From positions 4,222 through 68,221 of the IMG/VR virus record IMGVR_UViG_3300045988_069682: a stretch of DNA of 64,000 bases. One strand, 5' to 3'. Positions 9,756 to 32,089 of the stretch are shown piece by piece. This DNA is from a virus. Numbering within the stretch: the first letter of the stretch is position 1; every line of letters starts with the position of its first letter. The translations under genes were made by a program, and so were the position numbers. Under the pieces are notes generated by a model. The model did not search any database, was not told where the DNA came from, and was given only the letters and a program-made list of their open reading frames with translations.

Positions 9756-9779
9756 AAACGAACATCACCTCACATTTCT

Positions 9780-9877: not shown

Positions 9878-9902
9878 ATAGGTAATTAGGGAGGTGCGTT
9901 AA

Positions 9903-10461: not shown

Positions 10462-10648
10462 CTGTCTACTCACCCGACGGTAGCCGACGTGAGCAAAAGC
10501 CAAACGATGACAATCCGCAATAAAAAAAGACCGCGCTCCATGGCGGAGAACGGTCAATGCTTTTTAGCTGTTTGAAGCGAACTGCTATGAACAAGCGTAT
10601 AAATCAAGCCATTGCGCTCGTGTCGCTGTCATAGAAGTCCAAAACGAG

Positions 10649-10678
10649 TGCAACCGTCTCGGTTTCGAGACGGTTGCA
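10649..10678. other. perfect 13-bp stem-loop immediately upstream of an RBS
   Basis: TGCAACCGTCTCG-gttt-CGAGACGGTTGCA, about 10 nt before GGGAGGA and the ATG at 10700. Confidence 0.6.
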
Positions 10679-10699
10679 GACTGTACGGGAGGAATTTAG

Positions 10700-10909
10700 A
10701 TGGAAGAAGAAATAGGGGTTGTCTATAAAACGCCCGGCAGCCGATGCAGAGTTTCTTTGTTGACGCAACCAGGCGGAGAAAAATACATTGTTATTGCCAA
10801 TCAGTTCAATACAAAGAACACAGACGGTTGGTTTACTAAAAGATTAGTTTATATACCATACGGTTCTGCGGCGCAAGTAGCTGTACTTATAGCCTTAGCC
10901 GTGAAATGA
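10700..10909 (+). CDS. hypothetical moron protein (69 aa, hydrophobic C-terminus)
   Basis: GGGAGGA RBS. Flanked by a stem-loop upstream and an intrinsic terminator downstream. Located in the lysogeny region. Confidence 0.55.
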   Translation: MEEEIGVVYKTPGSRCRVSLLTQPGGEKYIVIANQFNTKNTDGWFTKRLVYIPYGSAAQVAVLIALAVK

Positions 10910-10946
10910 AGGAGGACTGGCAATTATATTGGAACTAAAAGAAAAG

Positions 10947-10979
10947 CAAAAAGGCCTCCGTACACCGGAGGCCTTTTTG
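10947..10979. terminator. bidirectional intrinsic terminator
   Basis: AAAAAGGCCTCCG-tacac-CGGAGGCCTTTTT. Confidence 0.8.
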
Positions 10980-11123
10980 CAAACACTATAAATAAAGAAA
11001 GAAGGGATTGTGACTCCAAATGGAGATATGCCGAATGAACTTCACACTTATATTTTAACAGAACCATAGAGTAAGTAACAAGGGGGGTTTGAGCGCGGTT
11101 TTTGTCAGAAAGGAGAAAAAATT

Positions 11124-12266
11124 ATGACAAAATATCGAGAAGGCTCTATATATTACGAAACAAACAGAGGCAAATGGCACGCTTCCGTCGCCGACCCGCA
11201 AGGTCACAGAACGCACAAAAGGTTCGACACGGAAGTGGAAGCAAACGCTTGGCGCTTGAGCATGGCAGCGAAATACATCAAGGGTAATTATGTTGCGAAA
11301 AGCGACATGACTCTAGGGACATGGATTTTGCAATATCTCAGCATATTCGCTAAATCTAAAGTGAGAGAAAAGACCTTCTTGAACTACGCTAATACCGCTG
11401 CGCATATTAATGAAACATTGGCAGACGTAGAGCTGCAAAAACTTTCACCCATTGCAGTCCAGTCCTATATCAACAACGCAGACATGACAGACGGCATGAA
11501 AGACAGATTGGTAAAACTGCTTTGCCGTGCGTCAAAAAAAGCCATTGCAACAGGGCTGATAGAAAAAGACTTCATGGCTGGGGTAGAAGTGCTCAAACCT
11601 GAGCCGAAAGAAGTAGAGATTTTCTCCCCCGAAGAGCTGAATATAATTATGGAAACCATTGACAGCGACGCAAGACTTCGCAGGCATCATCTGCTTATTT
11701 CCGTTGCAATCGCGTCTGGCTGTCGGATGGGAGAGATATTGGCCCTAACACCACAGGATTTAGATGGAGATGCTATAAAAATCAACAAAAGCCTAGTGGA
11801 AGTTAATGGCGTAGCAAAGCTTCAACCACCAAAGACCAAAGCAGGATACAGGAGGATTCCTTTGCCGAAGAATATAATGGCAGAGCTTTATCAAGCTGCA
11901 TATGCTCTTAAAGACGAGGAAATCATCAGAAACGCCAAAGGCAACCCGTGCTTAACTACTAACATCGACAAGACGTGGAAACGGATATTGAAGAAAGCGG
12001 GAATTCCTTACAGAAAATTTCATTGTCTGCGCCACACTCATGCGTCGATGCTGCTTGCTGCAGGTGTGCCTATATTGGAAGTAGCAAAGCGTCTGGGGCA
12101 TTCTCGCCCTAGCCACACATTAAACCTCTATGGTCATGCTATTCCCGGCTATGACAGCCAAATGCCATCGCTTGTAGAGAAAGTTTTCAGTTTAGGAAAC
12201 GGCAATCATGAAGATATTCTTGCCGCATCTTGCCTTGCTTTGCCCTCAACAACCGAAAAAAGTTGA
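11124..12266 (+). CDS. int: tyrosine integrase
   Basis: Catalytic region ...GCRMGEILAL...HCLRHTHASMLL...LGHSRPSHTLNLYGH (R..HxxR..Y). The attP lies about 90 nt downstream. Confidence 0.95.
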   Translation: MTKYREGSIYYETNRGKWHASVADPQGHRTHKRFDTEVEANAWRLSMAAKYIKGNYVAKSDMTLGTWILQYLSIFAKSKVREKTFLNYANTAAHINETLADVELQKLSPIAVQSYINNADMTDGMKDRLVKLLCRASKKAIATGLIEKDFMAGVEVLKPEPKEVEIFSPEELNIIMETIDSDARLRRHHLLISVAIASGCRMGEILALTPQDLDGDAIKINKSLVEVNGVAKLQPPKTKAGYRRIPLPKNIMAELYQAAYALKDEEIIRNAKGNPCLTTNIDKTWKRILKKAGIPYRKFHCLRHTHASMLLAAGVPILEVAKRLGHSRPSHTLNLYGHAIPGYDSQMPSLVEKVFSLGNGNHEDILAASCLALPSTTEKS

Positions 12267-15979: not shown

Positions 15980-16486
15980 TTAATGCAGTCTATACCATTC
16001 AGCGTTACCGCGGATGGTCTGCATCTTTTCATAAAGCTTTCTGCCGGGGCAAGCAGTCGCCATAAGGTCTCTGTGGCCTACCACGACGTTTTTCGCCGCC
16101 GTCAGACTGTAGATATTGCACAGCTCACCAATGAGCGCAGAGAGGCTGTTAAGCTGCTCTGGAGTAGGGCGTGCAATCTCAAAGTTTCCGCACACATGGA
16201 TACCGATAGTATCTCTGTTTCTACCGTAAGCATGAGCACCAACAGCCCATCTAGGTCTGCCTCGCTCGATTGTGCCATCCTTGCGGATAACATAATGGTA
16301 GCCGATGCCAGCCCAGCCCTGAGCTTTATGAGAGTCATGAATCTCTGCCGCCGACAGGTCATCATCCGTCGGATTGCCTGTATGATGCACCACAATCATA
16401 TTGGTTTGTTGGCGCTCGTTCAAGCTGTCAAAATTTAAATCTGTTTCAACGATGTCCGTGTTTCTCACCGTCCTTTTCGTCCTCAA
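15980..16486 (-). CDS. N-acetylmuramoyl-L-alanine amidase endolysin (Amidase_2/PGRP)
   Basis: IVVHHTGNP...AQGWAGIGYHYVIRKDGTIERGRP...GAHAYGRNRDTIGIHVCGNF...HRDL..TACPG. Confidence 0.85.
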   Translation of the reverse strand: MRTKRTVRNTDIVETDLNFDSLNERQQTNMIVVHHTGNPTDDDLSAAEIHDSHKAQGWAGIGYHYVIRKDGTIERGRPRWAVGAHAYGRNRDTIGIHVCGNFEIARPTPEQLNSLSALIGELCNIYSLTAAKNVVVGHRDLMATACPGRKLYEKMQTIRGNAEWYRLH

Positions 16487-17144: not shown

Positions 17145-20100
17145 TTAAATGTCAAATTTGTCGCCATATTTTTTCAAGCAAAGCTGTGCGACCTTTTGTT
17201 GCTTTGCTCGGTTTTTATCAACCAGCATCCTCTTTTGCGCTGGGGTGTATTTGGGGTTTGTTGTAATATCCCTAATCTCTTTTTGGAGCTTGGAGATTGT
17301 GTTTGCCGCAGTATTAACGCCAGATACAGCGACGGTAGGTTTACCCTTCTTGCCGTAACCAGCCTGCCATTTCGCAGATGCCTCTTTGAGCTGATAGAAG
17401 TCATTCATGGTTCTGGTAAGGTTCATGTCGTTGACAACGAAGTCACGGACGAACGCCATTTCTGAAAGCTTCTTTTCTGGCAGATTGCGCTTTTCGGCAA
17501 TCAGCAAGTCTGGAGCTTGCCATAAGAACATGCCCATAGTGCCTGTATAACCACGCCAGAGATTGTCAATTTTTACAGGAGACAACTTCATGATTGGGTT
17601 GTCACCCAAAGCCTTACTCATTTCACTGGTGTATGGGCCATATTGCAATTCGTCCGGCAGACGTTCCTGTGACTTGCTCACAATGGGCTTGCCACGGAAA
17701 AAGGAGTAATTTGTAATCCACTCAGCCAGTGGCAGAAACAGAGTAGGAATAACGCCCGGCATCAGTGCGTCTCGTGCTTGGGTGCGCCAGTTTGCCATAG
17801 CCTTCGGGTCTTGACCGTTAGCCGTATCGAGCATAGCTTCCGCGCCAGAGCCAAACAGAATACCAGCTTCTTGCGGTTTGGGGATGCGAATACCATTTGG
17901 CAATATCCAGTTGGTCATCTTGACGTTCGGGTCAAGTTCCTTATACCAATCCTCATCGTGATTCCACAGCCACAGCACTATGGACGGCAGAACTATATAG
18001 GTACCGATGCGGAGTAAAGTTCTTCTCGGGTCAGCCTTAAACATTCTATACAGCTTATCGCCGCCTTGAATACATGCGTTGAAGAACGGTACCATACGGT
18101 TGATTTGCTGACCTGTAGCACCGCTGCGGCCAAAGTTAAGAGTAATCTCTACTGCGTCGTAAGCTGCTTGGTCTACGCTCTTGCCTTTCTCTCTCGCCCG
18201 CATGAACTCGCCCATACGGGTGCCAGCTTCGGCAAGGTTGCTAATCCATTCCAGACCTTCTATCGGTTTGTGGAATATACCTTTGATAATATCTAGCAAG
18301 CCAAGCTTCTGCCATTTTTTACCGCCAGCCATACTTTCAAGGCTACGCATAACTGATTCGCCATCGCCATAGAAGTTGGACGAGATAACGCCACTTGCAT
18401 TAAACTCGCTTCTCAACTGCTGATTATTGAGCAATGCGTTCATGCCGCGAATACTGTCGTAAATTGGAACGAAGCCGTTCTTGGAGGCGATTCCTGCAAA
18501 CAATGTATCGCGAATGAGGTTGCGAAGAATAAAGGACGGAGACATTGTAGAACCAGTTCTCAGCCATTGAGCTGGCTTAGTCAGTAGAGCCATTTCGATT
18601 TCCACTAACGGCTTTACCGCAGCAGTAATAGCTGGGTACATCTCAGGGATTGTCTGATAGGAGTGCTTCTCGCCGTTGAACATTACCGTAAAGATGCAGT
18701 TCTTGGCATCGCCGCTATTGCCCTTAACCTCCTTGATGTAGTCATCGAGCTTGTATTTATTTGCCTGTTTAACGGCATACTGGCCAACTCTGTTACGCTC
18801 TGCCTTCTGTGTCAATGCGTTGATAGATGTAACAATAGTTCTGAGTGGCGGCACTATGTCGCGTTCGGAACCTTCGCTGCTACGATTCTTTAACGGGTCA
18901 GACACGTTCGCTAGACCTTTGCCAGAGTTAATCTGGTCGATGAAACTGTCAACAGCAGCGGTGTCGCTGAAATCACGCATCAACGGGCAATAAGCCTTGT
19001 AACGAGATTTGGTTGCTAAGTATCTGTCCCCGGTAATCAAGCCAGTGTTGTACAGAATATCCAGCATGTTGTCAGTAATGCCTTTGAACATCTTGGCATA
19101 TTCTTTGAAACCAACAGGAGCTTCTTTGATGACCTGCCGAATTTCCTGCTCAGTCATACCGCCCGGAAATTTATAAGGCTCAAAGATAGGCTTATCACCA
19201 TGCGAGCCTTTCTTTTCCCATTCGGCTACACTGCGGTCGTAGTCAAGTCTATGGTTTTGCGCGGACTCCAACAGGCTTCTGGCAACCAAATAATTTTCGA
19301 TTGCGCTGATGTGTTCTTCGAGTTCCGCTTTGCCTTGCGGATTAGTGGATTTAACGTAATTGGTAAATCGGCCAGCCTTCATATCTGTGCCGATTTTCTC
19401 CATGAGCATCTGCAAGGAAACCATGTTCTTGATGCCATATTTGTTTGCCGCCTGTTTCAACTCATCTGCATTGCCTTCCAGCAGAGCCATTGCCATGCCA
19501 GAAGCGCTATTCGCTGCCATGTTCATGCGGCCAAGGATGGTGTTAGCTCCGTCGATTTTCTCGCCGCTCGCCTTTGCGATTGCGTCATCGAGCAGATGCA
19601 AAGCGTCATACTTGTCAACGAAGTGTTTGTAGAATTGGCTCTTGGCATCGACTATCCACTCTTTAACCTTTTGGGTTCTGGTCTTAGGTTCCTCTCTGGC
19701 AATTCTGGAGCCGAGCTTCTGCGCTGCATTTGCGGTTTTTTCACCCTCATGGCGCTTATTGACGTAGGTACGATTCGGCAGTCCGTCGTCAATCTTTTCG
19801 ACAACTTCTTTGCCATCTTTACCCAACCTTACAACAGCTCCAGCTAGAGAGAAGCTTTCAATCTCTTTAGCGTGTAGCTTTTTACGTAAAGAGCGGATTT
19901 CTGCCGCACGCAGTTTCGTGCGCTCTTTTTGCTTCTCCCCTTTGTCTTTAAGGTATTCGGCAAGTTCCTTTTGATGCTCGTTCATAATGGCGGTAATTCT
20001 ATTGTCGCCAGCGCCAGCAGCATAGGCTTCCTCTAACTTACGCTTATAAGCTTCGTTAATACCTGTAATGCCTGGGTCTTGAGAGCGAGGCTTGCTTCGA

Positions 20101-23100
20101 GCAGAATATTTACAGGGATTAGTTTGACGAGCATTGACAAGGTCTTGCTTGTGTAGTATACTTTCGTCAGAAGCCCGCTTGCGGATAAGGCCTGTTAAGG
20201 TGTCGGTTCTGGCATCCTTAGCCGCCTTAGCCCAAGCGAGGCTTTTTTTGCTGTCTAAATATAATAATTCCCCGTTATTTTCAAGAGCGTTTATAAAATA
20301 CTGGTAGCTCGGTTTAGCTCCGCCTACGCCAAACGCAGTTTGCGGCATGTTGACCACAGTACGCTTGCGCTCAACATCGACTTCCAATTTTACTGGAACA
20401 ACAACAGTAGCTCCGTACTCGTTTTTTACTCCTAGCACTAAAACTCTTTTGTTAGGAAATTCTTTCTTAACCCCTTTAACATCCTCAAAATCTTTGAGAA
20501 TCATCAAAGGTTCTGCCATAGCTTTTGGGATTTGTTTAATTACGGCTGGTGTCATTCCCGGATGCTTAGTTTTAGTTGAATGGCCAAAAAACCCAGAAGA
20601 AATTTTCAAAGGATATTGCTTCGCTCCAGTTAAAACCAAAGCCAATGGCGTTTGTCTCATGAAATCCACAGTTTCAAACTTATGTTCTTCAAACCACTTT
20701 TTCGGATTCTTCGACCACTCATCTACCATTGCAGCAAATCTATCTGAATCCTCGTCAATCTTTTTCTGTAACGCCTCATCAAGTTTTGATTTTTTTGCTT
20801 GGTGCTTATCGCCGTCGCTGTTTCTTTTGCTGCCCTCATCTCCCCAAACCTCACCAAGCTCGATTCTACGCGCTAAATCATGGAAGTTATCAACTTTCTC
20901 GAACATCGCTTGAGCTTTCTTGATAAAATCATAAACCTTGCGCATGAGCTTCGCTACCAATCGTTGCAGCTTGTTTTTGGCAAGAATCATTCTACCCCAT
21001 GCGGTCTTTTGCAGTTCGGTTTCATGCAGTTTGGTAAACAGAGCGGCCTTTCCGCCAACGCGATTGGCTCTCAGCATCATTCTGCCCCAAGGTGTTTTTT
21101 GCAGCTTCTCAATTTCGGATTTGGTGAAGTCGGTTATGTAACCATGCTCACGAGCAGACACGAAGTTGCGCACTGCGTCAGCAGCGATTTCCTCTGCGTC
21201 TTTCTCAATACCATACTCTTCGGCAATCTTCTCTGCTCTGTCAAACAGGATTTTCTTCTCCTGCTCGTTGAGTGCCAAATCAATCGCTGCATGAGTAGCT
21301 TCGTGAGCCTCAGTATTCTCTCTGGAGTCCAAGGAAACACTGATGATACCTTCAACGTCAGAACTGTACATCGGGCGGTAGTAACCCTCGATAGTCATAT
21401 CCGCATCGTCAGCTATGCCATGTTCTTTTCTGGCGCGCTCGGCTTCTGCTTCATTTACAAGAAGATTGTTTTGAATATCGAGGGTAAATTTGTTACCACC
21501 TTTAGTAATGATAGTGAACGTGCTATTGTCATTGACTTGAATATCATCAGTACCGAAGAGTTTTTTGCACTTCTCTAAGATTTCATCACGAGAGCGCAGG
21601 ATTTTTTCGCCAAATTCGGATTCACGGACGGAGAACTTAACCTCCGCTTTTTGATTAGCCTTGTGCAAAGCTGTGTCCAATGCCTTTTGACGTACAGCTC
21701 CGATTTTGCTGTCGCTGTCATAAAACTCGATATGAAGCCCCGCATCCATCATAGCTTTTACTTCTTTAGTATCCGCATATTTCTGTGGTACAACTGCGGC
21801 TTTAAAGTCTCCAAGGTTGACGCTTCGTTGACTCTTGGCTTCAAAATATTCGGTTTTGACCAGTTTCTTTACGCTATGGAAAAGATTCAAAGCTCGCTCA
21901 TTAGGCAAAGCGTTAACAAGATTAGGGTTTTCTTTGAACGCCTCTTTGCCAACAAGTTCCTCCATTAAGTGTTTTTCGGACGGGTCATCTGAATTTATGA
22001 CTTTTGCAATAGCAATCAAAGCATCATCCCCAACTTTGTCATAATTACTTCTTATGGTTGGGTTGTCGAAGTCTCTTGAAAGACTACCAGACGCTTTGTG
22101 CATATCATCTACAGACTTAAACTCTCTGGCTACAAACGCCAAAAATTGTCCATAGGTCATTCTTTTTCCTTCAGACCAGTGTGCTCTCGGATATGCTTGT
22201 TTTAACATGTAGCGTTCTAGATTTTCTGTTGTAAAAGGAACATCCTTTCCTTCGGCCGGGTTAAAGAAATAGCTTTCGCCGTCGATTATTTTCTCTTTTG
22301 GAATCGTTGGAGTCCAAGCATCGCGCTCATAAACCTTCGCCGCTCCTGTGCTTGGGTCGATAAGTTCTTTACCCCCAATCAAAGTTATTTCTCCGTAGTT
22401 GCTGTACGGCTCTCCGTCGCGTATAATCGCAAGACTTGGCGACACAAAAGTACCATTTGTTTTGCCAAAGATAACATCGCTAAGAGATTCCATGGTCAAA
22501 TTGTGCAAAGCTACAAGTTTTGACGAATCTCTTGTCTTGTTAACATACCGCTTATTTGAATTATCAGTACCTTCTGGCTTTGAATCATAATCTGCATGTG
22601 ATGCCTTATTTTCAACAGCCACGGCATTGCTAGTTTCTTTCGCTGCTTTTGCGATTTCTTCGACCGCTTCATGCTTGTCATAAAGCTCTTGATACTTTTG
22701 TAAAGCTTGAAGCATTGCATCTGCATATTTTTTTACAGCATCAATGGTTTCGTCGCTCAATTCGTCATCTTTCAGACCTTTTATAAGCGCATCAAAATCT
22801 TCATCGAGTTTGCCGTCAGTCGCGTAATCAGCCGTTACGGCTGCCGCAATACTGTCTCTTCCAATATCGGCAACATCTTCTTTTTCTTGCTCGCTCAGCA
22901 CTGAATCTAAAATATTTAATGCTTCTTTAGGCAGCGTTTCCAGTTCGTCCGGATTACCCTCTATTAAACCACTTGCCGCCCTAGCAACAATATTGGCATC
23001 AGTATTGCCATTTTTTACTTCTGCCAATGCGACGCGCGCATCGTGTTTTGCACGTTTTTCGTCAAATTCCAACCATATAGAATTTCTTGCAGCAGCCAAA

Positions 23101-26100
23101 GAAGTGTTTTGCTCACTTGTATATTCATCATCACTCTTTGAAGCATTTGCAAGATTCATTTGGAAGTCACGCGCTTCCGCAGCCCCAACGTGACTGTCGC
23201 CGCCCAACATGGTGTCAATCTGATTGCGCAAATCATCTAATTCTTTTATGCGCTCGGCAAATGGTTTGCTAACTTCGTCCTTGCCGCTGAATACAACCTC
23301 GTTAATGATTCGCTTAACATCAGCAGGAATCTCAAAATCAAAAGTATAAGCGTTGGCCCACTTCTTAGATTTTTCGGATTCCCTGCCTAATGCTTTTTGT
23401 ATTTTCAGCATAAATTTTTCAATATAAGATTGAATTTCTGCCTTTAAATCTGCAAACAGTTTATTGAGCCACGGAATAGGGGTATCTGCATCGGCTATAT
23501 GTTTTATGATAGCCTGAGAGAAACGCTCTTCGTCAACAGGCCCGCCGTCGCTTTTAGAGCGTTGCTCTGAGTTAAAGTAAGGAGCCTGGGTATACTCTTT
23601 AGACGTTTTATCTGCCCCATTTCCTATCCATTCTCTCAGCCGTTTAAAATCATCTTTGAGTTTTTGAGGTGCAAGCGGAGACTCTGCAACCAAAGCAAAG
23701 TCTGCAAAGAACATGTGCGCCATTTCGTGGAACAATGTGGTTGTACTAGCTTTTCCAGAAAAAGCCAATCTTCCTCTTGCAGTTTTGTCAGCAGTAAATA
23801 TTTGAGTTGTGAGTCCAGCAGTGCCCGCCGAAAAGCGATTATCAATTTTATCATCAAAAAATGCAAATTTATAACGCTGAGCAAACGCCAAAGGGGTATA
23901 GTTTGCGCCGAGATACTTATTGAACAGCCTAGACCACGTTTGCGCTCTAAAAGCCAAAAGCTGTGCGGCAGCTTCAATAGCATTTGTGCTGAACCGTTTC
24001 TTGGAATCATTGGAAAGAGAAGATTTTACCCAATCATAGACCTCTTGGCCTTCTTTGGACAAAGTCTCGTTGCCGTCAGCCATTGCGTCAGTAGTTGCAG
24101 ATTCAAGAATCTTTTTGTCGATTTGCTCCTGCTCCTTTTTGACTGCTGCTACCTGTTTATCATATACGGATTTTCTATCGTCAACTCGCAAAAAGTCGCC
24201 CTTGCCAGCGCTGTCTTTGCTAGCTTCCAGTTTCCTTTCCAATTCACTCTTGATTTTTTCAAGCGAATCAAGAGCCTCTTCCAAAAATATCTTGCCTTCC
24301 TTATGCTGTTTGACAACATTTTCGGCGGCTTCCTTGGCATCTTTAAGTGCCTTTTGGTAAAACTCTTTTCTCGGAGCCTCAGCTTCTTCTCTAGCTCTTT
24401 TATCAGCTTCGAGTTGTTTCCTGTGCTGCTCTTTAGCATCTGCTTCTCGGTCGATGAACATTTGCTTGCGAGTTTCTTCTATTTTCTCGATGCAGTCTTT
24501 TGAAACAGTAGGAACCTGTCGTTCACTACGCGCATAAACACGTTTTAAAGCATTTACCTCCTTGGAAGCCTCGTCTATGCTAGTTTCACCATTACGCCAC
24601 TTATCGCAGATTCCCTTAACTTGTTCCAGCAAGGTCGCCTCGTTGTATTTTTGAATAAGTTCAATGTTATCAACGGGGGTTTTCTTGTTCATTAGATACA
24701 AGCCATTGTTATCTGTGTTCAGTCCTTTAACGATAGCAGAAACATCTGGCTTTGTTTCAATGTCTGCTTGCTGCCTAATTGGCGGTTCGCCTTCGCCGCT
24801 GCCAGAACCAACATCAGCAGTTGATGTATCGGTTGTACCTTCGGTGTTATCAGTATTCGCGTTTTTGAGCTTGTCGAGCACATCCGTAAGAGTAACCTTT
24901 GGAACTGTCGGCAACTCAACGGGCTTGCTTGTGTCAATGCCATTGCTCGCAAAGAAATTTTTAACGCTCGCAGATGCCGCATCTAATCCCGGTGTCCCTT
25001 TATTGCCATTGATATTATCTTTTTGGTGCTTTTCAAGAAAATCTTTAACCTTCGATTGTCCGTAAGGAGCGTAATAAAAGCCACCAGAATCCCAGTGGAA
25101 TCCAGCTTGGCCTAAAGATTTTCTCACATCAAGAGGAAGCTTGTCGGATGGAGCAATCCATACCATGTTGTCTTTTTGGCGCAGGATAGGGTTTAACTCC
25201 TTGCCACCGACTTGAATTGTTGGCAATTTGTCTGCCTTACCAACTTCATTCTTGTTAGTGTTGTCGTCCTGCTTTGGTTTTTTACCTTTCGCCGGGGTTA
25301 CTGTATTACCATTGGCATTGTTATCAGAAGCATCTTGAACAAGATACTTCTTCAAAAATTCGTCTAAAGCTGGCGTATTTTCAGCAATAGAGCCTTCCTC
25401 TTTGCTCTTCCATGCAAAGCCAGCTTTCTTATATGCTTGCTTTTCTTCTTTGGTGAATTTAACACGCTTTTCCATTTTTAAAGAAACTCTGCCATCCGGC
25501 AAAGACCTTACTTCGCCTTTAACACCATTTAAGCGAATAGTGCATAGCAGTTTTCCAACATCAGTAGTCGATGTATCGGTTTTATCATCGGCATTAACAT
25601 CATCTGCGTTTTTGAGCTTATCGAGTACATCCGTGAGATTAACCTTAGGAGCCTTCGGTAGTTCAACGGCCTTGCTTGTGTCAATGCCATTGCTCGCGAA
25701 AATCTCACGAAGCGTCTGGACTTCGGTTTTCGGTTCTACGTCTATTTTTGCCCCAGAGAGTTTCTCCAAAGCGGTTTTCACCTCTGCGTTATAAGGAGCT
25801 TTAATCGCTTTCGCATTGCCGTCATACTTAAAACCAGCTTCGTAGATGATTTTTCGTTGTTCGTCTGTGGTTTCGGTACCTTTAGGCCAAGAAATGGTAA
25901 CTGTTTTGCCATCGTCCGTCAGAATCGGAGTCAACTCTTTTTTGCCGAATTTAATTTTTGGGAGAGTTTTTTGCATCTCTTGTTCGCGTTCCTCCGGCTC
26001 AGCTTTAGGCTCAGTCTTAGGCTCGGCTTTAGGCTCGGCTTTAGGCTCAGCTTTAGGCTCAGTCTTAGGTTCAGCTTTAGGTTCGGCCTTAGGCTCAGCT

Positions 26101-28655
26101 TTAGGTTCAGCTTTAGGTTCAGCCTTAGGTTCAGCCTTAGGTTCAGCGATTCTATTAAGCGCAGCAGGAACCTTTACCCCTAGCTGTTCCGCAAGTTGCA
26201 TTAATCCGTTAATGTTAGCAGTTTCCGCAACTTTTGCAGCAGCGGCCTTTTTCTTTTTGTTAAGAACTCTGCTGTTTTTTATTGCGCTTTTCAAAACGCC
26301 GCGGAAGTTTTGTACTGCATGGTAGTCGTCATCAGCGCCAAGTTCCCATGCCGCAATGCCATTTTCAGCTGCATCCATAACAGCCGCTTTGCGTGGAGCA
26401 GTCAGTTTGCTAAACCATGCCCAAGCTTCTTCGTTTCCGTTCATTGCTGCATTGAATTTTTCAACAGCATCTTGATTGTCGTTTAAAAAGGTGCGCAACG
26501 CAGGAGCCGCTCTCAGTTGTCTAACGTCAAATCCTCCATTAGCGTTCAAAAAACGGTCGGAGCCTTTCCCCTTCTTTAAACCATCTAAGATAGCTCGTTT
26601 AGAACTTTCGTAACGAACTTTGGCCTGTGTGCCGTAGTTTGCAACGGTTTCTGCTACACCTGTGTTGGCTTCTGGAGGCACAGGGTACTGCGCTGCGTTT
26701 TTCTTGCCGTTGTTTTGTAACGAAGAAGGAGCCTTTGCACTATTTTTAATATTTTGTTGAAGCGCTCGTCCACGAGGCGGCAAATTGCTTGTATCGACAG
26801 CTAAGACTGTTCTCAGCCTTGCTACTTCTATATCGTATTGCTCTTTGCTTATTTCGCCGCGAGCGTATCTGCCAGCCAAATCGTTTACTTCTTGTTCATA
26901 TTCTGCTCTAAGTCTGCTCACATCTGCTTGCGAAGGCGTATCGTATCGCAAATTATAGCCTTTAAGTCGAGTGGCTGCTTCGTTCAGACGGGTTAATTGT
27001 TTATCTGCATCCCGACGGCTAACGCTGCCTAATTGTACTCTGTTTTCGATTTTAGCGCGTTTTTCTTCGGTCTTGCGGTCAACATCGCTATTTGCATATA
27101 CACTAGGCTTTTGCGGCATCGGCAAACCCAAAACAGGCTCTTGCTTGTTGATAGCTTTATCGACACTATCCATAGCAGCCTTATAGTTAATGCCAAAATG
27201 CTGTTCTGGCGGTCTGAAATTCATGTTGCCGCCCCGTGCCATCGCGTCAACCAAAGTGCTTGGGCTTGCGCTCATCTCGTCGAGTTTTCGCCTGGTCGCA
27301 AACATGTTTTGAATCGCATCAGAATCAATTTTTTCTTTTTGCTCAGCCCCATCCCAGCCGAATTTCATAGCAGTATTTTTAATCAATTCAGCGTCTCCGC
27401 TAGAATTAACTGCATCTATTTCGTTGCGCTGTTCGTCACTTAGGGATGGATGTTCATAAAGGCTATCGAGATATTCTTGCGCCTGTGCAACATCATCGTT
27501 CGTTGGCTGTACTTCGGGCTGAACCGATTGCTGTGTCTCAGCGGCAGCTATCTGTTCCTGCTCATTCTTGCTGTTGAGGTAGTTGGCACCAGCTCTCATC
27601 GCAGCGTTGCCGCCACCGATAGCCAAGCCGCCTACACCGCCAACGGCAGCCTGTTGCAATGCTTCGTCGCTCCACTGTAAAGGGTTTACCACGCCGAGCA
27701 AATTCTGCTTGCCTTGCGCATATTCATGGGTGGATTGTTGCATACCTTCTTCCCAAGCGTTTTGCAAACCTTCACGGGTAACGCTGCCTAGAATGGCCAT
27801 CATGCCTTCTTTGCCGATTTTTTTGCCGCCAGCTTTCTCTGCTTCCTTCAAGAATAATTTGCCCAAGCCAGCAGATTCAAAGGTGTTGCTTAAACCGAGC
27901 AGAGGCATCTGCAATGCGCCTACGATAAGAGCCTGTTTTCGTGCCTCGTCGATGTTCGCGCCACTTTCCAACGCTTCCGCACCAGCATTACCCATTTCAG
28001 AAGAAACTTCAACGGGGGTTTTCAAAATATTCAAAGCATAGAGCTTGCCCATAGGGCCATCCAACACCTTTGCAAGTTTGGGCATACCTGCTTTGGCGGC
28101 AGCTCTGCTCATGCCTCCGCTGATTTTACCTGCAAGGGCAAGGCCTCTAGCCGCGCCGCCAACACCTGCTGCACCACCAACGCCAAGAGCGCCGAGGGCT
28201 GCGCCGCCAGTTGCTGCAACGGCGGCAGTCTCTGCACCAAGGACGGCCGAAGAGCCGAGCATATTAGCAACGTCATATGCCGCACCATCGCCATTAGTCC
28301 AGTAGTCGCTGGCGAATGGAATCATATCTGCAATAGTATATTCTTTTTTGCGGGCGTTGTTCTGCATAGATTCACCCAACGCATTGGCTGTGGCACCGTC
28401 TCCAATGCCCATCAAGTTGCTCAACTGTGCTTGACCTTGCAGCACGCCCAAGGCACCGGATTTAAAGCCTCTGGTAAAACCCCAACTGTCATCTTGAAGC
28501 GCACCTTGCTGCGCTGTGGGCAGCGCGCTTTCGTCGAGGTTCATTTGTTTCATATAAGAATCGGCGTATTCATGTGCTGGCATGTTGCCTAACTTTCGCA
28601 TACGCTCGGAAAAGTTTTTGTACCCTTCACTTGGGTTTTCGTAATCAAACATCAT
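17145..28655 (-). CDS. giant (~3,836 aa) multidomain virion/ejection ('polyvalent'-type) protein
   Basis: Single open frame of 11.5 kb. ATG at 28655 sits 8 nt after the upstream stop, with an AGGAGGAAC RBS. Contains Gly/Ala-rich hydrophobic N-terminal segments, 13 x (A/T)EPK, triplicated modules, and two HExxH motifs (LFHEMAHMF, EAHEATHAAI). Confidence 0.8.
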   Translation of the reverse strand: MMFDYENPSEGYKNFSERMRKLGNMPAHEYADSYMKQMNLDESALPTAQQGALQDDSWGFTRGFKSGALGVLQGQAQLSNLMGIGDGATANALGESMQNNARKKEYTIADMIPFASDYWTNGDGAAYDVANMLGSSAVLGAETAAVAATGGAALGALGVGGAAGVGGAARGLALAGKISGGMSRAAAKAGMPKLAKVLDGPMGKLYALNILKTPVEVSSEMGNAGAEALESGANIDEARKQALIVGALQMPLLGLSNTFESAGLGKLFLKEAEKAGGKKIGKEGMMAILGSVTREGLQNAWEEGMQQSTHEYAQGKQNLLGVVNPLQWSDEALQQAAVGGVGGLAIGGGNAAMRAGANYLNSKNEQEQIAAAETQQSVQPEVQPTNDDVAQAQEYLDSLYEHPSLSDEQRNEIDAVNSSGDAELIKNTAMKFGWDGAEQKEKIDSDAIQNMFATRRKLDEMSASPSTLVDAMARGGNMNFRPPEQHFGINYKAAMDSVDKAINKQEPVLGLPMPQKPSVYANSDVDRKTEEKRAKIENRVQLGSVSRRDADKQLTRLNEAATRLKGYNLRYDTPSQADVSRLRAEYEQEVNDLAGRYARGEISKEQYDIEVARLRTVLAVDTSNLPPRGRALQQNIKNSAKAPSSLQNNGKKNAAQYPVPPEANTGVAETVANYGTQAKVRYESSKRAILDGLKKGKGSDRFLNANGGFDVRQLRAAPALRTFLNDNQDAVEKFNAAMNGNEEAWAWFSKLTAPRKAAVMDAAENGIAAWELGADDDYHAVQNFRGVLKSAIKNSRVLNKKKKAAAAKVAETANINGLMQLAEQLGVKVPAALNRIAEPKAEPKAEPKAEPKAEPKAEPKAEPKTEPKAEPKAEPKAEPKTEPKAEPEEREQEMQKTLPKIKFGKKELTPILTDDGKTVTISWPKGTETTDEQRKIIYEAGFKYDGNAKAIKAPYNAEVKTALEKLSGAKIDVEPKTEVQTLREIFASNGIDTSKAVELPKAPKVNLTDVLDKLKNADDVNADDKTDTSTTDVGKLLCTIRLNGVKGEVRSLPDGRVSLKMEKRVKFTKEEKQAYKKAGFAWKSKEEGSIAENTPALDEFLKKYLVQDASDNNANGNTVTPAKGKKPKQDDNTNKNEVGKADKLPTIQVGGKELNPILRQKDNMVWIAPSDKLPLDVRKSLGQAGFHWDSGGFYYAPYGQSKVKDFLEKHQKDNINGNKGTPGLDAASASVKNFFASNGIDTSKPVELPTVPKVTLTDVLDKLKNANTDNTEGTTDTSTADVGSGSGEGEPPIRQQADIETKPDVSAIVKGLNTDNNGLYLMNKKTPVDNIELIQKYNEATLLEQVKGICDKWRNGETSIDEASKEVNALKRVYARSERQVPTVSKDCIEKIEETRKQMFIDREADAKEQHRKQLEADKRAREEAEAPRKEFYQKALKDAKEAAENVVKQHKEGKIFLEEALDSLEKIKSELERKLEASKDSAGKGDFLRVDDRKSVYDKQVAAVKKEQEQIDKKILESATTDAMADGNETLSKEGQEVYDWVKSSLSNDSKKRFSTNAIEAAAQLLAFRAQTWSRLFNKYLGANYTPLAFAQRYKFAFFDDKIDNRFSAGTAGLTTQIFTADKTARGRLAFSGKASTTTLFHEMAHMFFADFALVAESPLAPQKLKDDFKRLREWIGNGADKTSKEYTQAPYFNSEQRSKSDGGPVDEERFSQAIIKHIADADTPIPWLNKLFADLKAEIQSYIEKFMLKIQKALGRESEKSKKWANAYTFDFEIPADVKRIINEVVFSGKDEVSKPFAERIKELDDLRNQIDTMLGGDSHVGAAEARDFQMNLANASKSDDEYTSEQNTSLAAARNSIWLEFDEKRAKHDARVALAEVKNGNTDANIVARAASGLIEGNPDELETLPKEALNILDSVLSEQEKEDVADIGRDSIAAAVTADYATDGKLDEDFDALIKGLKDDELSDETIDAVKKYADAMLQALQKYQELYDKHEAVEEIAKAAKETSNAVAVENKASHADYDSKPEGTDNSNKRYVNKTRDSSKLVALHNLTMESLSDVIFGKTNGTFVSPSLAIIRDGEPYSNYGEITLIGGKELIDPSTGAAKVYERDAWTPTIPKEKIIDGESYFFNPAEGKDVPFTTENLERYMLKQAYPRAHWSEGKRMTYGQFLAFVAREFKSVDDMHKASGSLSRDFDNPTIRSNYDKVGDDALIAIAKVINSDDPSEKHLMEELVGKEAFKENPNLVNALPNERALNLFHSVKKLVKTEYFEAKSQRSVNLGDFKAAVVPQKYADTKEVKAMMDAGLHIEFYDSDSKIGAVRQKALDTALHKANQKAEVKFSVRESEFGEKILRSRDEILEKCKKLFGTDDIQVNDNSTFTIITKGGNKFTLDIQNNLLVNEAEAERARKEHGIADDADMTIEGYYRPMYSSDVEGIISVSLDSRENTEAHEATHAAIDLALNEQEKKILFDRAEKIAEEYGIEKDAEEIAADAVRNFVSAREHGYITDFTKSEIEKLQKTPWGRMMLRANRVGGKAALFTKLHETELQKTAWGRMILAKNKLQRLVAKLMRKVYDFIKKAQAMFEKVDNFHDLARRIELGEVWGDEGSKRNSDGDKHQAKKSKLDEALQKKIDEDSDRFAAMVDEWSKNPKKWFEEHKFETVDFMRQTPLALVLTGAKQYPLKISSGFFGHSTKTKHPGMTPAVIKQIPKAMAEPLMILKDFEDVKGVKKEFPNKRVLVLGVKNEYGATVVVPVKLEVDVERKRTVVNMPQTAFGVGGAKPSYQYFINALENNGELLYLDSKKSLAWAKAAKDARTDTLTGLIRKRASDESILHKQDLVNARQTNPCKYSARSKPRSQDPGITGINEAYKRKLEEAYAAGAGDNRITAIMNEHQKELAEYLKDKGEKQKERTKLRAAEIRSLRKKLHAKEIESFSLAGAVVRLGKDGKEVVEKIDDGLPNRTYVNKRHEGEKTANAAQKLGSRIAREEPKTRTQKVKEWIVDAKSQFYKHFVDKYDALHLLDDAIAKASGEKIDGANTILGRMNMAANSASGMAMALLEGNADELKQAANKYGIKNMVSLQMLMEKIGTDMKAGRFTNYVKSTNPQGKAELEEHISAIENYLVARSLLESAQNHRLDYDRSVAEWEKKGSHGDKPIFEPYKFPGGMTEQEIRQVIKEAPVGFKEYAKMFKGITDNMLDILYNTGLITGDRYLATKSRYKAYCPLMRDFSDTAAVDSFIDQINSGKGLANVSDPLKNRSSEGSERDIVPPLRTIVTSINALTQKAERNRVGQYAVKQANKYKLDDYIKEVKGNSGDAKNCIFTVMFNGEKHSYQTIPEMYPAITAAVKPLVEIEMALLTKPAQWLRTGSTMSPSFILRNLIRDTLFAGIASKNGFVPIYDSIRGMNALLNNQQLRSEFNASGVISSNFYGDGESVMRSLESMAGGKKWQKLGLLDIIKGIFHKPIEGLEWISNLAEAGTRMGEFMRAREKGKSVDQAAYDAVEITLNFGRSGATGQQINRMVPFFNACIQGGDKLYRMFKADPRRTLLRIGTYIVLPSIVLWLWNHDEDWYKELDPNVKMTNWILPNGIRIPKPQEAGILFGSGAEAMLDTANGQDPKAMANWRTQARDALMPGVIPTLFLPLAEWITNYSFFRGKPIVSKSQERLPDELQYGPYTSEMSKALGDNPIMKLSPVKIDNLWRGYTGTMGMFLWQAPDLLIAEKRNLPEKKLSEMAFVRDFVVNDMNLTRTMNDFYQLKEASAKWQAGYGKKGKPTVAVSGVNTAANTISKLQKEIRDITTNPKYTPAQKRMLVDKNRAKQQKVAQLCLKKYGDKFDI
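25996..26151. repeat. 12-bp tandem repeat (13 units) encoding (A/T)EPK
   Basis: GG(C/T)TC(A/G)G(C/T)(C/T)TTA units counted directly. In frame within the giant ORF. Confidence 0.9.
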
Positions 28656-28662
28656 GTTCCTC

Positions 28663-30471
28663 CTAGTGCTTTTTAACCCAGTTTGCAACGTCCGTTAGCT
28701 TAAAGTTATTCCACTCATCTCCCAAGGCTTCTAGAGATGCCAATATGCCAGTATGTCCGTTGGCGTTTGGAACTTCCTCTGGCTCTGGAGTAGATGCCGA
28801 AGTATTGTTGCTCAAAACATTGTCAAATTCTTCTCTGGCACCCTCGCCATCAGAGTTTTCCATATCTCCGTATGTATCTCTAAGCCACTTATCTACGGTT
28901 CGTTGCTCATCTTCGCCGAGACCACTATCAAAGTAAATCCAGTTGCGGGCTTCATCATAAGTCAGTTCACCGTTGCCAATAGCTTTTTGGAGTTCAGCCT
29001 TAACCACACTAGCTGGAACAACATAATTATCGCCAGCCATGTAACGGTCGTAAGCCGCCAATGTATTAGTGGCGGATTGTTTCATTTCTGGACTGGCGTT
29101 CGGATTCTCTAAAACGCCTCTAGCCCACTCTACGCGCTTGTCCCATGTTGGGCCTTTGCTCGAAGAACCGCCGCCAGCAGCGCTTCTGCTTCTACCACCG
29201 CCAGAACCGCCGCCATAGCCGCCTCTGCCGCCTCTGCTACCCCCGCCACCACCGCCATAGCTATACGAAGGCGCTTTGCCAGCAATGTAACCCATGCTCT
29301 GCAAATCTTTCTGAGAGTAACGGGTGTCGCCTGTTTCGAGGAAATTCTTAGCTTCCTGTTCAGAATAGCCACGGTTTTTCATCAGCATCTTAACAGATTG
29401 GTCGTATTTATACTGCTCCAAGAAGTCGCTCTGGTTACGTTTGAATTGCCCAGATAAGCCTTCTGCCAGAATCGGGTTCAACTGACGCATCCTTGCATAT
29501 GTCAATGCAGAAGCATCAATCTGCCCACTTTGTACCTGTTGTTTGTAAAGGTCATACAAGGCGTTGAATTGCTGTGCGTTGTTTTGCTCGACCTTGTTTG
29601 CAATGTCCGGTTCAATAATCTTCATTACCTGCTCAATCTGATATGGTGTTCTGCCGTTTTTTAACATTTCCGAACGGGCAATAGCCGAAAGACTTTCTTT
29701 GCTAAGAGGAATGTTGTTCAGATTCGCATTAGCAATCTGACCTTTTGCCGCAAGAGCTGTAATGGTGCGCTTATCTTCTTCGGGATTGTCAGTGCCGCTG
29801 TATTTTTGTACAACATAGTCCTGCTTCTCTGCTTTCAAATCTCGTGGAGCCTCAACCACAGGAGCCGCAACGCCTTGCCCATTAGCGGATGCGTCTGAGG
29901 AAGGGGTTGTCTGTGGCTGAGGCTGAGAAAAATTTGCAGACGGCACCTGCTGACCGTTAACAGTTAAATTCTGCGGCTGATACTGCTGCGGAATACTGCC
30001 TGTTGCACTGATAGCCGCACTTTGTGGCTGAGCAAAATCCATAGAACTGATTGTGCCGCCTTGGGGAGCTGCTACGATGCCTTGACCGAAATTCAGCCCA
30101 TTTGCGCCAGCGCCGATATTGCCAGCGTTTTCATAGCCAGTGCCTTGCTGCTGATGGAAACTTCCTGCACTTCCCGGCATTGCTACCTGTTGACCGTCCA
30201 CAGTTACGTTGCCGCCGCCAAACGCTCCTGTCGCGTCTTGGCCTTGCCCTTCCATCAACGCTTTCATTGCGGCATTTATGGCTTCGGTACTTTCATCAAT
30301 ACCCTTCTGGGTGCCTCTGCGATTATAATTCTGCCCCCAGATTGCTCCCAGCAAGCCGCCAAGGTTATAAAAAATATCATTGCTGCTTGAGCCTGTTGAA
30401 AAACCTGTGCTCGGGTTAATCTTAACTCCGTAGTTAGGGTTCATTTTCATTCCGTATGCGCCATAACTCAT
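28663..30471 (-). CDS. Gly/Gln/Arg-rich low-complexity virion protein (602 aa)
   Basis: SYSYGGGGGGSRGGRGGYGGGSGGGRSRSAAGGGSSS RGG-like tract plus Q/N/P-rich regions. Lies between the Hint protein and the giant ORF. Confidence 0.7.
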   Translation of the reverse strand: MSYGAYGMKMNPNYGVKINPSTGFSTGSSSNDIFYNLGGLLGAIWGQNYNRRGTQKGIDESTEAINAAMKALMEGQGQDATGAFGGGNVTVDGQQVAMPGSAGSFHQQQGTGYENAGNIGAGANGLNFGQGIVAAPQGGTISSMDFAQPQSAAISATGSIPQQYQPQNLTVNGQQVPSANFSQPQPQTTPSSDASANGQGVAAPVVEAPRDLKAEKQDYVVQKYSGTDNPEEDKRTITALAAKGQIANANLNNIPLSKESLSAIARSEMLKNGRTPYQIEQVMKIIEPDIANKVEQNNAQQFNALYDLYKQQVQSGQIDASALTYARMRQLNPILAEGLSGQFKRNQSDFLEQYKYDQSVKMLMKNRGYSEQEAKNFLETGDTRYSQKDLQSMGYIAGKAPSYSYGGGGGGSRGGRGGYGGGSGGGRSRSAAGGGSSSKGPTWDKRVEWARGVLENPNASPEMKQSATNTLAAYDRYMAGDNYVVPASVVKAELQKAIGNGELTYDEARNWIYFDSGLGEDEQRTVDKWLRDTYGDMENSDGEGAREEFDNVLSNNTSASTPEPEEVPNANGHTGILASLEALGDEWNNFKLTDVANWVKKH

Positions 30472-30486: not shown

Positions 30487-31602
30487 TTACCATTCGTTTG
30501 TTGCGCCTTTGGCGATAAAGCCGTTGGCGTAATATGCGTTAGTTCCTGTCAACTTCATGTCGTAAACTTTTCTTGTGCCATTGAAGATGACACTTTTGAC
30601 TTTGCCGACATTCTTCAAGTTATCGCCAATTCTCAGCATCGCTACATCGCGCCATGTGCCGTCAGCTTTCATTAAAGGCTGAGTCAGTGTTGTGATTACG
30701 TCGTGCATGTCGCCGCCCTCGTCTTGGCAGATAACCATATAAACTTCGCTATCCAGCGGTTCCATAATCTCGACAACTTCTTCGACCTGCTTCTTATCAC
30801 GAACATGGTCGTATGCCAAAACTTTGTCACCGGAAACGATTTCTCTGATAGCCTTAGTCCCTTTGGTTGTTTTAATGGGAGTTTCACCAACAAAGCAAGC
30901 GATAGCAGACGCACCGAGGTTGAGAGCACCGCCAAGGAAGCTACCCCAGCCGCTGCCGCCGCTTTGGCTTGATGTGCTGGTTGTGGTGCCAGTGCCCTTC
31001 ATGGCATCCAGTGCACCCAATGTACCTCCGCTGTTCAAGCCAAGGGATGCGTTCCACAGATTCAGAGCTGGCTGCTGAGCCGCCTGTTGTGCCGCAGCAG
31101 AAGTAGTAATGTTCTGACCAGCCAAAGAAGCCTGCTGGCCATACAAGCCGTTCAATGTGCCGATATTGCTCTGATACTGTTGAGCCATGGCATCGGCAGC
31201 GTTCTTGGAAATATCGTTCAGAGCTGTGTTTGTCACGCTGCTGTTAAGGATGCCTCTGGAACCAAGGCTGTTAAGAGTGCTGCCCATAGTGTTGTTTACG
31301 CCGCTTCGGATAGCGTTCTCCATGTTCTGCTGATATGCAGACGGCAAAATGCCTTGTGTCAGATTGGCTACACCTTGTTGCGCCGCAGAGGTCTGCTGAT
31401 TGGCGTTGTTTAATAACTGGTTGTAGTCAACTTGGATTGTACCCAAGCTGTCTTGCAGTAAACCTCTCGCTACGCCGTTCAGCCACAGTGCGTTAGGTGC
31501 AATAGCCTCGGAATAATCAGCGGCCGCTTTTTGCAGTCGAATTTCCTGCTCTGTTGGTTTGTAGGATTGTACAGTTGTCGAACTGCCGCCTTTTTTACCC
31601 AT
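30487..31602 (-). CDS. virion protein with C-terminal Hint (Hedgehog/intein-like) domain
   Basis: Start MGKKGGSS with an AAGAGGGTG RBS. The last 136 aa are CFVGETPIKTTKGTKAIREIVSGDKVLAYD...VYDMKLTGTNAYYANGFIAKG. Confidence 0.7.
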   Translation of the reverse strand: MGKKGGSSTTVQSYKPTEQEIRLQKAAADYSEAIAPNALWLNGVARGLLQDSLGTIQVDYNQLLNNANQQTSAAQQGVANLTQGILPSAYQQNMENAIRSGVNNTMGSTLNSLGSRGILNSSVTNTALNDISKNAADAMAQQYQSNIGTLNGLYGQQASLAGQNITTSAAAQQAAQQPALNLWNASLGLNSGGTLGALDAMKGTGTTTSTSSQSGGSGWGSFLGGALNLGASAIACFVGETPIKTTKGTKAIREIVSGDKVLAYDHVRDKKQVEEVVEIMEPLDSEVYMVICQDEGGDMHDVITTLTQPLMKADGTWRDVAMLRIGDNLKNVGKVKSVIFNGTRKVYDMKLTGTNAYYANGFIAKGATNEW

Positions 31603-32089
31603 TAAGCACACCCTCTTTCCGTAATTTCTCTTTCATTTTTTCAATTAGCGGGCTGGTTGCTTTGGTGTTGAAATAATGAGTTACCCAATAAACTGGCTCG
31701 CCTGTCTTTTCGTCGTTGTGTTTGTGTGTGATGATAACCAATCTGCCGATGCTGTCTTGGCACCAATAACGGAAGCGCCCGTCAACATCTTCCTTTTCGA
31801 TTGTCTCCCAGCCAAAGCCGCGGATGTACGGTTCGATGTGTCGGGTGCAAATGCTGGCTACACACTCAAAACCAGCCGTGCAGCTTACGAGTTCAGCATA
31901 ATCACGCCAAAATTTAGCGTCGCCGCATACTTGGTAAATAATCATCATTTTGCCTTCAAAGTCGGGCTTCATGCTCGCGAAACCTCTTTCCGGCATATAC
32001 AAAAGGCGATAGCCCGGTAATAAATCAAAGCTATCGCCTGTTTTGATTTCATAAATTTCAATCCATTCTTTAAGGCTTTTAGCCTTCAT
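31595..32089 (-). CDS. hypothetical virion-module protein
   Basis: 164-aa ORF, overlap-coupled to the downstream gene. Confidence 0.6.
   Translation of the reverse strand: MKAKSLKEWIEIYEIKTGDSFDLLPGYRLLYMPERGFASMKPDFEGKMMIIYQVCGDAKFWRDYAELVSCTAGFECVASICTRHIEPYIRGFGWETIEKEDVDGRFRYWCQDSIGRLVIITHKHNDEKTGEPVYWVTHYFNTKATSPLIEKMKEKLRKEGVLNG

Follow-up and report, generated by a model that had tools for sequence, protein, structure and literature searches.

Polyvalent proteins are multi-domain proteins predicted to be injected together with phage DNA, and the LPD38 domain has been described in their phage type only (Iyer et al., 2017). Giant proteins of the LPD38 class account for about 15-22% of coding capacity in many short-tailed phages, occur in virions, and one of them is needed for efficient infection. 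We analysed a stretch of 64,000 nucleotides (nt) from the IMG/VR virus record IMGVR_UViG_3300045988_069682 (positions 4,222 to 68,221; the whole stretch is called the window throughout), in which a giant gene occupies positions 17145-28655 on the minus strand. This gene probably encodes an LPD38-class phage polyvalent protein which is packaged in the virion and ejected from it, with conserved ends handling the protein and a centre carrying effectors. The protein class is already known, and the giant protein is a well-documented further example which leaves the prevailing beliefs on LPD38-type proteins unchanged. New only in detail are its size, its Bacillota host, the 862 amino acids (aa) of its C-terminal unit and three conserved domains undescribed in the searched libraries, an N-terminal one (Pfam, PHROG) and two HExxH families (Pfam).

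For several members of the class experimental data are available. The gp47 of the Stx phage phi24B (2,807 aa as annotated in HM208303, 2,811 aa in the preprint) is abundant in the proteome of purified virions and invisible in the external density obtained by cryo-electron microscopy (cryo-EM); its authors propose an encapsidated ejection protein and leave its organisation in the capsid open. In the genus Lessievirus, Bcep22 gp75 (4,602 aa) and its orthologue JC1 gp69 (4,515 aa) are virion-associated by mass spectrometry, with 51 unique peptides for gp69 from purified virions, and gp69 is encoded by the last gene of the virion module. Knock-down of PTXU04_00025 (2,198 aa), for which the LPD38 signature is the sole confident annotation, blocks efficient infection. 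As the host of the window's phage is a Gram-positive member of the Bacillota, there would be no outer membrane or periplasm to cross, unlike for these LPD38 relatives.

The giant protein shares with phi24B gp47, PTXU04_00025, gp20 of the Bacillus Pagevirus Pony (1,679 aa) and the giant proteins of Pelagibacter and Vibrio podophages an LPD38 module at the C-terminus, a gene at or near the end of a podovirus virion module, and variable N-terminal and central effectors; with phi24B gp47 it also shares MuF-C. At 3,836 aa it is larger than phi24B gp47, PTXU04_00025 and Pony gp20. Its cargo consists of two unclassified HExxH domains, PBECR5 and MuF_C and, unlike that of the LPD38 relatives, includes no LPD1, LPD5, methylase, RelA/SpoT or lysozyme domain, whereas its Gly/Ala-rich N-terminal domain is found neither in phi24B gp47 nor in Pony gp20. 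Pony gp20 and Bcep22 gp75 are likewise encoded by the last virion gene before lysis, for Bcep22 also with a terminator. The similarity to Bcep22 gp75 amounts to ~24% identity and is limited to the C-terminal module. JC1 gp69 has reported methylase (COG0827/YtxK) and helicase-like (HepA) regions, and both Lessievirus proteins are annotated as 'DarB-like antirestriction'; neither a methylase nor a helicase was matched in the giant protein by whole-protein and segment-wise Pfam searches.

Two further systems are comparable in mechanism. The gp50 vRNAP of phage N4 (~3,500 aa) is a giant single chain packaged in a podovirus capsid and ejected. It has been proposed to be held in the capsid as flexibly linked beads of ~250-300 aa which pass a channel of ~35 Å, and its hydrophobic N-terminal domain to anchor at the inner membrane (PMC13434306). 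The N4 channel is formed by the separate gp51 and gp52, with gp50 as cargo. The beads-on-a-string organisation with long linkers provides an analogy of mechanism for the giant protein, not a family membership: its cargo is predicted to comprise nucleases and hydrolases instead of a polymerase, no RNA polymerase domain was matched in Pfam or among PDB sequences, and N4 mini-vRNAP appeared in a fold search, for which the C-terminal module alone was used, only as noise (E 4.4). The T7 proteins gp14, gp15 and gp16 and the P22 proteins gp7, gp16 and gp20 are internal and are expelled to bridge the envelope, the role proposed here for the ends of the giant protein; they are several separate proteins serving Gram-negative envelopes, whereas the giant protein is one chain.

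The giant gene and its C-terminal module

Positions 17145-28655 of the window hold a single unbroken open reading frame (ORF) on the minus strand, with 3,836 codons plus stop and a product of 425 kDa with a pI of 7.5. With ~5% stops expected at the local base composition, the calculated chance of 3,836 stop-free codons is ~e^-200, and a frame of this length cannot be a chance product. In its longest formal version the ORF would begin with a TTG (28688); an AGGAGG ribosome-binding site (RBS) located 4 nt upstream of the ATG at 28655 and overlapping the stop of the preceding gene makes this ATG the credible start, and the arrangement suggests tight coupling within the operon. Its status as the last gene of the operon is supported by a terminator-like hairpin 40 nt 3' of the stop and agrees with the neighbouring genes. 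On frame, start and position in the operon the original prediction, made by a model from the letters of the window, was borne out.

28659-28664, minus strand: RBS AGGAGG, 4 nt before the ATG at 28655, overlapping the TAG stop of the preceding 602-aa gene
17104-17081, minus strand: terminator-like hairpin, 10-bp stem with 7 GC pairs and a T-run, past the stop of the giant gene

Using the curated Pfam cut-offs, PBECR5, MuF_C and LPD38 were each found above threshold. Together with two conserved HExxH domains, they provide the at least two domains of disparate activity from the polyvalent inventory by which such proteins are recognised, in agreement with the polyvalent identity originally proposed. 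The C-terminus had been described as conserved over ~1,200 aa; the conservation held, its extent shrank to 862 aa.

17148-19733, minus strand: conserved C-terminal module (C-module), aa 2975-3836, 862 aa
17448-17954, minus strand: Pfam LPD38 core, aa 3568-3736, E 8e-40
17964-18020, minus strand: hydrophobic helix, aa 3546-3564, YIVLPSxxLW, just before the LPD38 core

PHROG 9854 covered aa 2975-3828 with an E-value of 2e-86. Comparing 23 homologs at 21-75% identity, 15 positions were found invariant and ~40 nearly invariant, and the entire module is conserved as a unit, not the Pfam core of 189 residues alone, with no relative among solved structures. In tblastn searches against distant phages only ~650 aa matched. 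A module of ~650-860 aa at the extreme C-terminus marks the LPD38 class; the giant protein ends in such a module, and in 42 of 53 proteins the module's end lay 10 or fewer residues from the C-terminus. The hydrophobic helix reached Kyte-Doolittle values of 1.2-1.8 in 21 of the 23 homologs, which is borderline for a membrane span.

The C-module profile matched Pony gp20 (720-1678, E 1.6e-142), Vibrio 1.211.A gp14 (1712-2703, E 8e-116), Bcep22 gp75 (3781-4601, E 5e-53) and phi24B gp47 (1905-2725, E 1.5e-45). Because the last two belong to virion-detected families, we infer that the giant protein is packaged in the virion as well, which supports the multi-effector virion protein of the original prediction. 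The structure predicted for the C-module by AlphaFold2 (AF2) was almost wholly helical, with a predicted local distance difference test score (pLDDT) of 77.6 and a predicted template modelling score (pTM) of 0.73. Searching predicted viral structures with it (Foldseek, BFVD) yielded 83 matches at E < 1e-3, all C-terminal pieces of long viral proteins, other pieces of which are annotated as methylase, RelA/SpoT, lytic transglycosylase or zeta toxin. The C-terminal piece of PTXU04_00025 matched the model with a TMq of 0.73.

Central cargo, N-terminal domain and relatives

The centre of the giant protein carries two predicted RNase domains and two HExxH domains.

23277-23975, minus strand: HExxH domain 1, aa 1561-1793, with HEMAH at 1643-1647 (nt 23715-23729)
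21627-22526, minus strand: PBECR5, predicted RNase, Pfam match at aa 2044-2120 (E 2e-18), homology to ~2343
20793-21617, minus strand: HExxH domain 2, aa 2347-2621, with HEATH at 2451-2455 (nt 21291-21305)
20241-20576, minus strand: MuF_C (PBECR-type), Pfam match at aa 2694-2805 (E 2e-11)

PBECR5 retains the invariant residues His2051, Pro-Ser at 2073-74, Asp2112 and a TxYFExK motif at 2268-2274. His2051 was conserved in 123/123 sequences, Thr2268 in 52/57, and Phe2271 and Glu2272 each in 57/57. These residues fit the active-site pattern of His plus Thr/Ser described for PBECR RNases (Iyer et al., PMC5512222) and point to a BECR-fold RNase. The segment FFGHSTKTKHPG ('FFGH...', aa 2689-2720), originally likened to PBECR-type modules, is located at the start of the MuF_C match; the guess was right, since MuF-C is classed as a PBECR domain (Iyer et al., PMC5512222). 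His2698 of MuF_C is kept in the giant protein, with only 7 sequences compared.

By composition 0.04 HExxH motifs are expected per protein, and the two noticed originally, HEMAH and HEATH, are indeed present and proved invariant in 26 and 34 homologous segments, respectively. An alignment of 8 sequences for domain 1 showed H1643, E1644, H1647, P1663, D1669, E1710 and P1726 to be invariant; a downstream Glu is thus invariant in domain 1, and it is nearly so in domain 2. The AF2 model of domain 2 (pLDDT 66 overall, ~85 over the first 130 residues) has a small beta-sheet, after which come the HExxH helix and one bearing the conserved Glu. Both domains are predicted metal-dependent hydrolases. A zincin-like MPTase domain forms the central hub of the domain network of polyvalent proteins, where it is common and not obligatory (Iyer et al., 2017). 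The C-terminal part of HExxH domain 2 also contains a direct repeat, LQKTPWGRMMLRAN / LQKTAWGRMILAKN (~20970-21110, minus strand; aa ~2517-2563), which is kept in homologs.

At the other end of the protein a Gly/Ala-rich domain was delimited.

27396-28538, minus strand: N-terminal domain, aa 40-420, Gly/Ala-rich
28128-28226, minus strand: Gly/Ala-rich hydrophobic stretch within it, aa ~144-176, Kyte-Doolittle peak over 19 residues of 1.44

The hydrophobic stretch had been noticed from the start, with a slightly mis-copied string; it correctly reads ...GGAALGALGVGGAAGVGGAARGLALAG (aa ~150-176). Characteristic motifs of the domain are GVLQGQAQL..GIGDG, NARKKEYT, YWTNxxGxAYD, ESAGLGKL, NAWEEGMQQS and VNPxxWSDEA. 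No match was obtained in Pfam, even at E 5, or in PHROG, and the domain is a candidate new family. It also starts at least 12 other giant proteins (2,820-4,257 aa) which end in the LPD38 C-module, and in all full-length carriers, 12 of them with the C-module, it stands at the N-terminus. Proteins of 3,154-4,131 aa carry both end domains. From this recurrence a layout of two conserved ends around a variable central cargo was derived. The profile of the N-terminal domain found no match in phi24B gp47, Bcep22 gp75, Pony gp20 and Vibrio 1.211.A gp14, so that the two-ended layout in this form is lineage-specific. A word-indexed search returned 3 matches for the N-terminal domain and 1 for the central region, and tblastn of both regions against phages gave essentially none.

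Between the N-terminal domain and HExxH domain 1 the chain is repetitive.

25992-26147, minus strand: AEPK spacer, aa 837-888, (A/T)EPK x12 plus AEPE
25554-26009, minus strand: duplicated ~150-aa unit, copy A, aa 883-1034, holding the first copy of a ~65-aa module
25404-25529, minus strand: aa 1043-1084, weak and degenerate second copy of the ~65-aa module, 16% identical to copy 1
24807-25277, minus strand: duplicated unit, copy B, aa 1127-1283

Of the 13 (A/T)EPK units originally counted 12 are exact and the thirteenth is AEPE; in the DNA they form a 12-nt tandem repeat of 12.7 copies (25996-26147). The spacer resembles the proline-rich spacers of TonB and procyclin as low-complexity sequence only: NCBIfam returned for the giant protein nothing other than the TonB proline-rich spacer, and a PDB sequence search with the whole protein gave low-complexity matches to circumsporozoite protein via the AEPK repeat only. 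The ~65-aa module had been reported three times. Copies 1 and 3 are well supported by the tandem duplication, copies A and B being 45-68% identical (E 2e-20), and the middle copy is the weak one, with 10 invariant alignment columns including the AGF motif. Neither PDB nor Pfam gave the module an identity; PDZ_4 was rejected, as its match (E 1e-4) remained under the cut-off and was located between the modules. Four highly charged stretches (aa 421-836, 1300-1560, 1800-2040 and ~2810-2975) are read as linkers. Relatives of the first three were found only among near-identical sequences, while the fourth is common to several C-module relatives.

The closest relatives of the giant protein are metagenomic. 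At the DNA level the window is unmatched in the phage collection, a megablast search of 50,697 phage records with the giant gene having returned none. A first scan of GTDB genomes found none and a second one 11 loci, the closest in a Ruminococcus metagenome-assembled genome (MAG), where the C-module is 50% identical and the four genes preceding the giant gene are syntenic; other Bacillota came next. When the central 1,130 aa were searched exhaustively with HMMER, 1,107 cluster representatives were collected; most of the 150 listed are 2,000-4,700 aa long, each sharing one or other block. In an independent assembly (L017, ENA ERZ28637117 scaffold_1872), 88-98% identical in DNA, the gene has an additional module of ~1.2 kb (L017 3401-4617, ~405 aa) without a Pfam match. 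It is inserted at the boundary of PBECR5 and HExxH domain 2 (nt 7037-7052 of the giant gene, window ~21604-21619). An insertion exactly at a domain boundary indicates gain or loss of whole domains between close relatives, whose Pfam cargo also differs (LPD3, LPD23 or none), and these data support a modular central cargo.

Shortened copies of the giant gene, each with a lysis cassette, were observed adjoining bacterial genes in the metagenomic contigs L002 (3156-13285) and L003 (9494-12265). In one copy ~80 residues are missing from the N-terminus and the other (923 aa) consists of nothing but the C-module; the bacterial genes beside them encode LarA, an HTH protein, SmpB, RNase R and a serine recombinase. 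No head or tail genes were called in the fetched 10-kb flanks, and both loci look like prophage remnants which retained the giant gene.

Proposed function and competing explanations

Judging from gene position, RBS and terminator, the giant protein would be a late product, the final one from the virion operon. Its virion-found homologs suggest that it would be packed inside the capsid of a temperate short-tailed phage with a Bacillota (Ruminococcus-like) host. At infection it may, by analogy with N4 vRNAP, be expelled via the portal-tail channel in a loosely folded 'beads-on-a-string' state, either preceding the DNA or together with it. The N-terminal domain and the LPD38 module would help the protein to be encapsidated, to exit and to be anchored at, or to cross, the cytoplasmic membrane. 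The variable centre would then be the cargo, in which two HExxH domains, as predicted metal-dependent hydrolases, stand beside two putative RNases of the BECR fold, PBECR5 and MuF-C. The HExxH domains may process the chain into active pieces or have host proteins as their targets, and the RNases might act on RNAs of the host or of defence systems within minutes of the onset of infection.

Several points weigh against this proposal. Ejection, as distinct from packaging, is only probable for LPD38 proteins, the phi24B authors themselves no more than proposing it. The giant protein is known here from its sequence alone. Comparing the C-module model by Foldseek with the PDB, in which T7 ejectosome structures are present, gave a best E-value of 1.1 and TM ≤0.10; with no structural relative found there, known ejectosome or channel folds lend the module no support. 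Only one segment of the protein nears transmembrane hydrophobicity (Kyte-Doolittle 1.5), and it could equally be a buried core helix. A channel-forming role, part of the original prediction, is conjectural, being read from this one borderline helix and the Gly/Ala-rich stretches. The N-terminal domain, absent from the four LPD38 proteins searched with its profile, is no universal handling device. For the HExxH domains no Pfam match, even at E 5, and no peptidase family was found, profile searches against PDB sequences gave nothing significant, and the AF2 model of domain 2 had no Foldseek match in the PDB. As hhalign of the two domains was negative as well (6.5% probability), no relationship could be detected between them, nor between either of them and solved zincins.

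The strongest alternative is a refinement of the favoured model, in which the giant protein is encapsidated cargo, the LPD38 C-module provides only capsid or portal docking and the encapsidation signal, and other small virion proteins make the conduit, with the upstream 602-aa and 374-aa products as candidates. The position of the C-module at the extreme C-terminus is where a targeting or docking tag would be, no membrane-protein or channel fold was matched, and the two conserved, uncharacterised virion-module genes directly upstream are syntenic in the 50%-identity relative. The division of labour in N4 between gp51 plus gp52 and gp50 follows the same lines. However, 862 aa with ~15 invariant and ~40 nearly invariant positions exceed the usual need of a docking tag, the hydrophobic helix is conserved across the C-module family, and PTXU04_00025 is needed for efficient infection with LPD38 as its only confident annotation. 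We consider this refinement unlikely. Somewhat less likely again, and speculative, is a further reading: in podophages of Bacillota a single giant chain would replace the multi-protein ejectosome, the N-terminal domain and the LPD38 module would form or gate a DNA conduit through wall and membrane, and the HExxH domains would be new zincin families freeing the RNase effectors by cutting the chain after entry.

A late protein which stays unpackaged in the producing cell, acting there in host takeover, superinfection exclusion or defence against competing elements, is improbable. Polyvalent proteins can be captured for defensive use (Iyer et al.), and the shortened copies of L002 and L003 persist in apparent prophage remnants beside bacterial genes. 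On the other hand, the stop-overlapping RBS links the giant gene to the virion genes and a terminator follows only after it, homologs occur in purified virions of two unrelated phage groups, and the gene holds an equivalent position in many podoviruses.

We give very little credit to an external structural protein, either a tape measure or a giant tail fibre, needle or adhesin on the particle surface. The very large size would fit, the proline-rich spacer and duplicated small modules recall surface proteins, and Gly/Ala-rich hydrophobic stretches also occur in tape measures. But a tape measure would be recognised by a family match and adjacent tail tube and chaperone genes, and profile searches matched no tape-measure, tube, sheath or chaperone family in the giant protein or its neighbours, as the original prediction had argued. 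Nor was a fibre family matched in the giant protein; collagen-like fibre and tail genes are present separately, its domains are of nuclease and hydrolase effector type, and phi24B gp47 is abundant yet unseen in the external cryo-EM density.

Equally remote is an assembly chimera or decaying pseudogene with an artefactual frame. The exact 3,836-aa protein is recorded nowhere else in the assembly index, and database gene calls break the gene in two relatives, L017 (~4995-5008) and L002 (~9770-9965). Both breaks coincide with runs of N and are thus scaffold gaps or masking; frameshifts were rejected. Besides the stop-free length, L017 aligns in three blocks at 88-98% DNA identity over most of nt 3632-11511, P0032 (2,644 aa) is 89% identical over the region searched, with local phmmer blocks from aa 894 to the C-terminus, and the proteins of 3,154-4,131 aa carry both end domains, all of which speaks for an intact gene. 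Such N-run breaks are a pitfall when 'split' polyvalent genes are tallied.

The giant protein adds to its class a large member with an intact gene, from a Bacillota phage of gut or rumen type, and a clear layout of two conserved ends around variable cargo. It also offers material for studying the passage of very large proteins along a narrow tail channel and for the discovery of anti-defence RNases which act early.

Neighbouring genes

The genes next to the giant gene form a head-and-tail module on the same strand, and the giant gene is the last of it, before the lysis cassette.

50076-50663, minus strand: TerS
48746-50092, minus strand: TerL
45719-47953, minus strand: portal, distantly related to N4-like, LUZ24-like and SU10-like portals
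42899-44101, minus strand: major capsid protein, distantly LUZ24-like
42763-42838, minus strand: tRNA-Thr (anticodon TGT), inside the head module, flanked by the major capsid gene and the adaptor genes

Further members are two SU10-adaptor-like genes, a 794-aa tail protein, a collagen-like fibre, a second fibre and an amidase-like 459-aa protein, followed by three proteins without PHROG match, one of them with a Pfam Hint domain, and then the giant gene. Downstream of it two small genes precede an Amidase_2 endolysin (15980-16486). The giant gene is thus encoded among virion structural genes, at the end of a series running from TerS, TerL, portal and capsid to tail and fibres and upstream of the endolysin. 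N4-like, LUZ24-like and SU10-like phages are short-tailed groups, and portal, major capsid protein and SU10-type adaptors of the window are of podovirus type, consistent with particle genes without tail tube, sheath or tape measure. An integrase and a repressor separate the lysis genes from the early block, and the gene order is that of a circular or vegetative temperate phage genome, not of an integrated prophage flanked by host genes.

11124-12266, plus strand: integrase
9903-10340, plus strand: HTH repressor
1-9800 and 62493-63894, minus strand: early block with RecT, YqaJ and replisome organiser, RusA near the other end of the window

The 374-aa protein (30487-31611, minus strand), two genes upstream of the giant ORF, has an N-terminal half rich in Q, N, G and S and a C-terminal Hint / pretoxin-HINT domain (PF07591, E 3e-8) beginning at a Cys (CFVGETPI), with no toxin past it. 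With 58% identity and synteny it was also found in a Ruminococcus MAG (L006), and it may be a self-cleaving virion protein. A block of small genes on the plus strand (~51200-62200) has a lower GC content (~0.40) and the opposite GC skew. It contains a RadC-like JAB protein (55262-55885) and a weak ArdA-like antirestriction match (60059-60643, E 1.6e-4, under the Pfam cut-off), and may be an accessory or anti-defence module.

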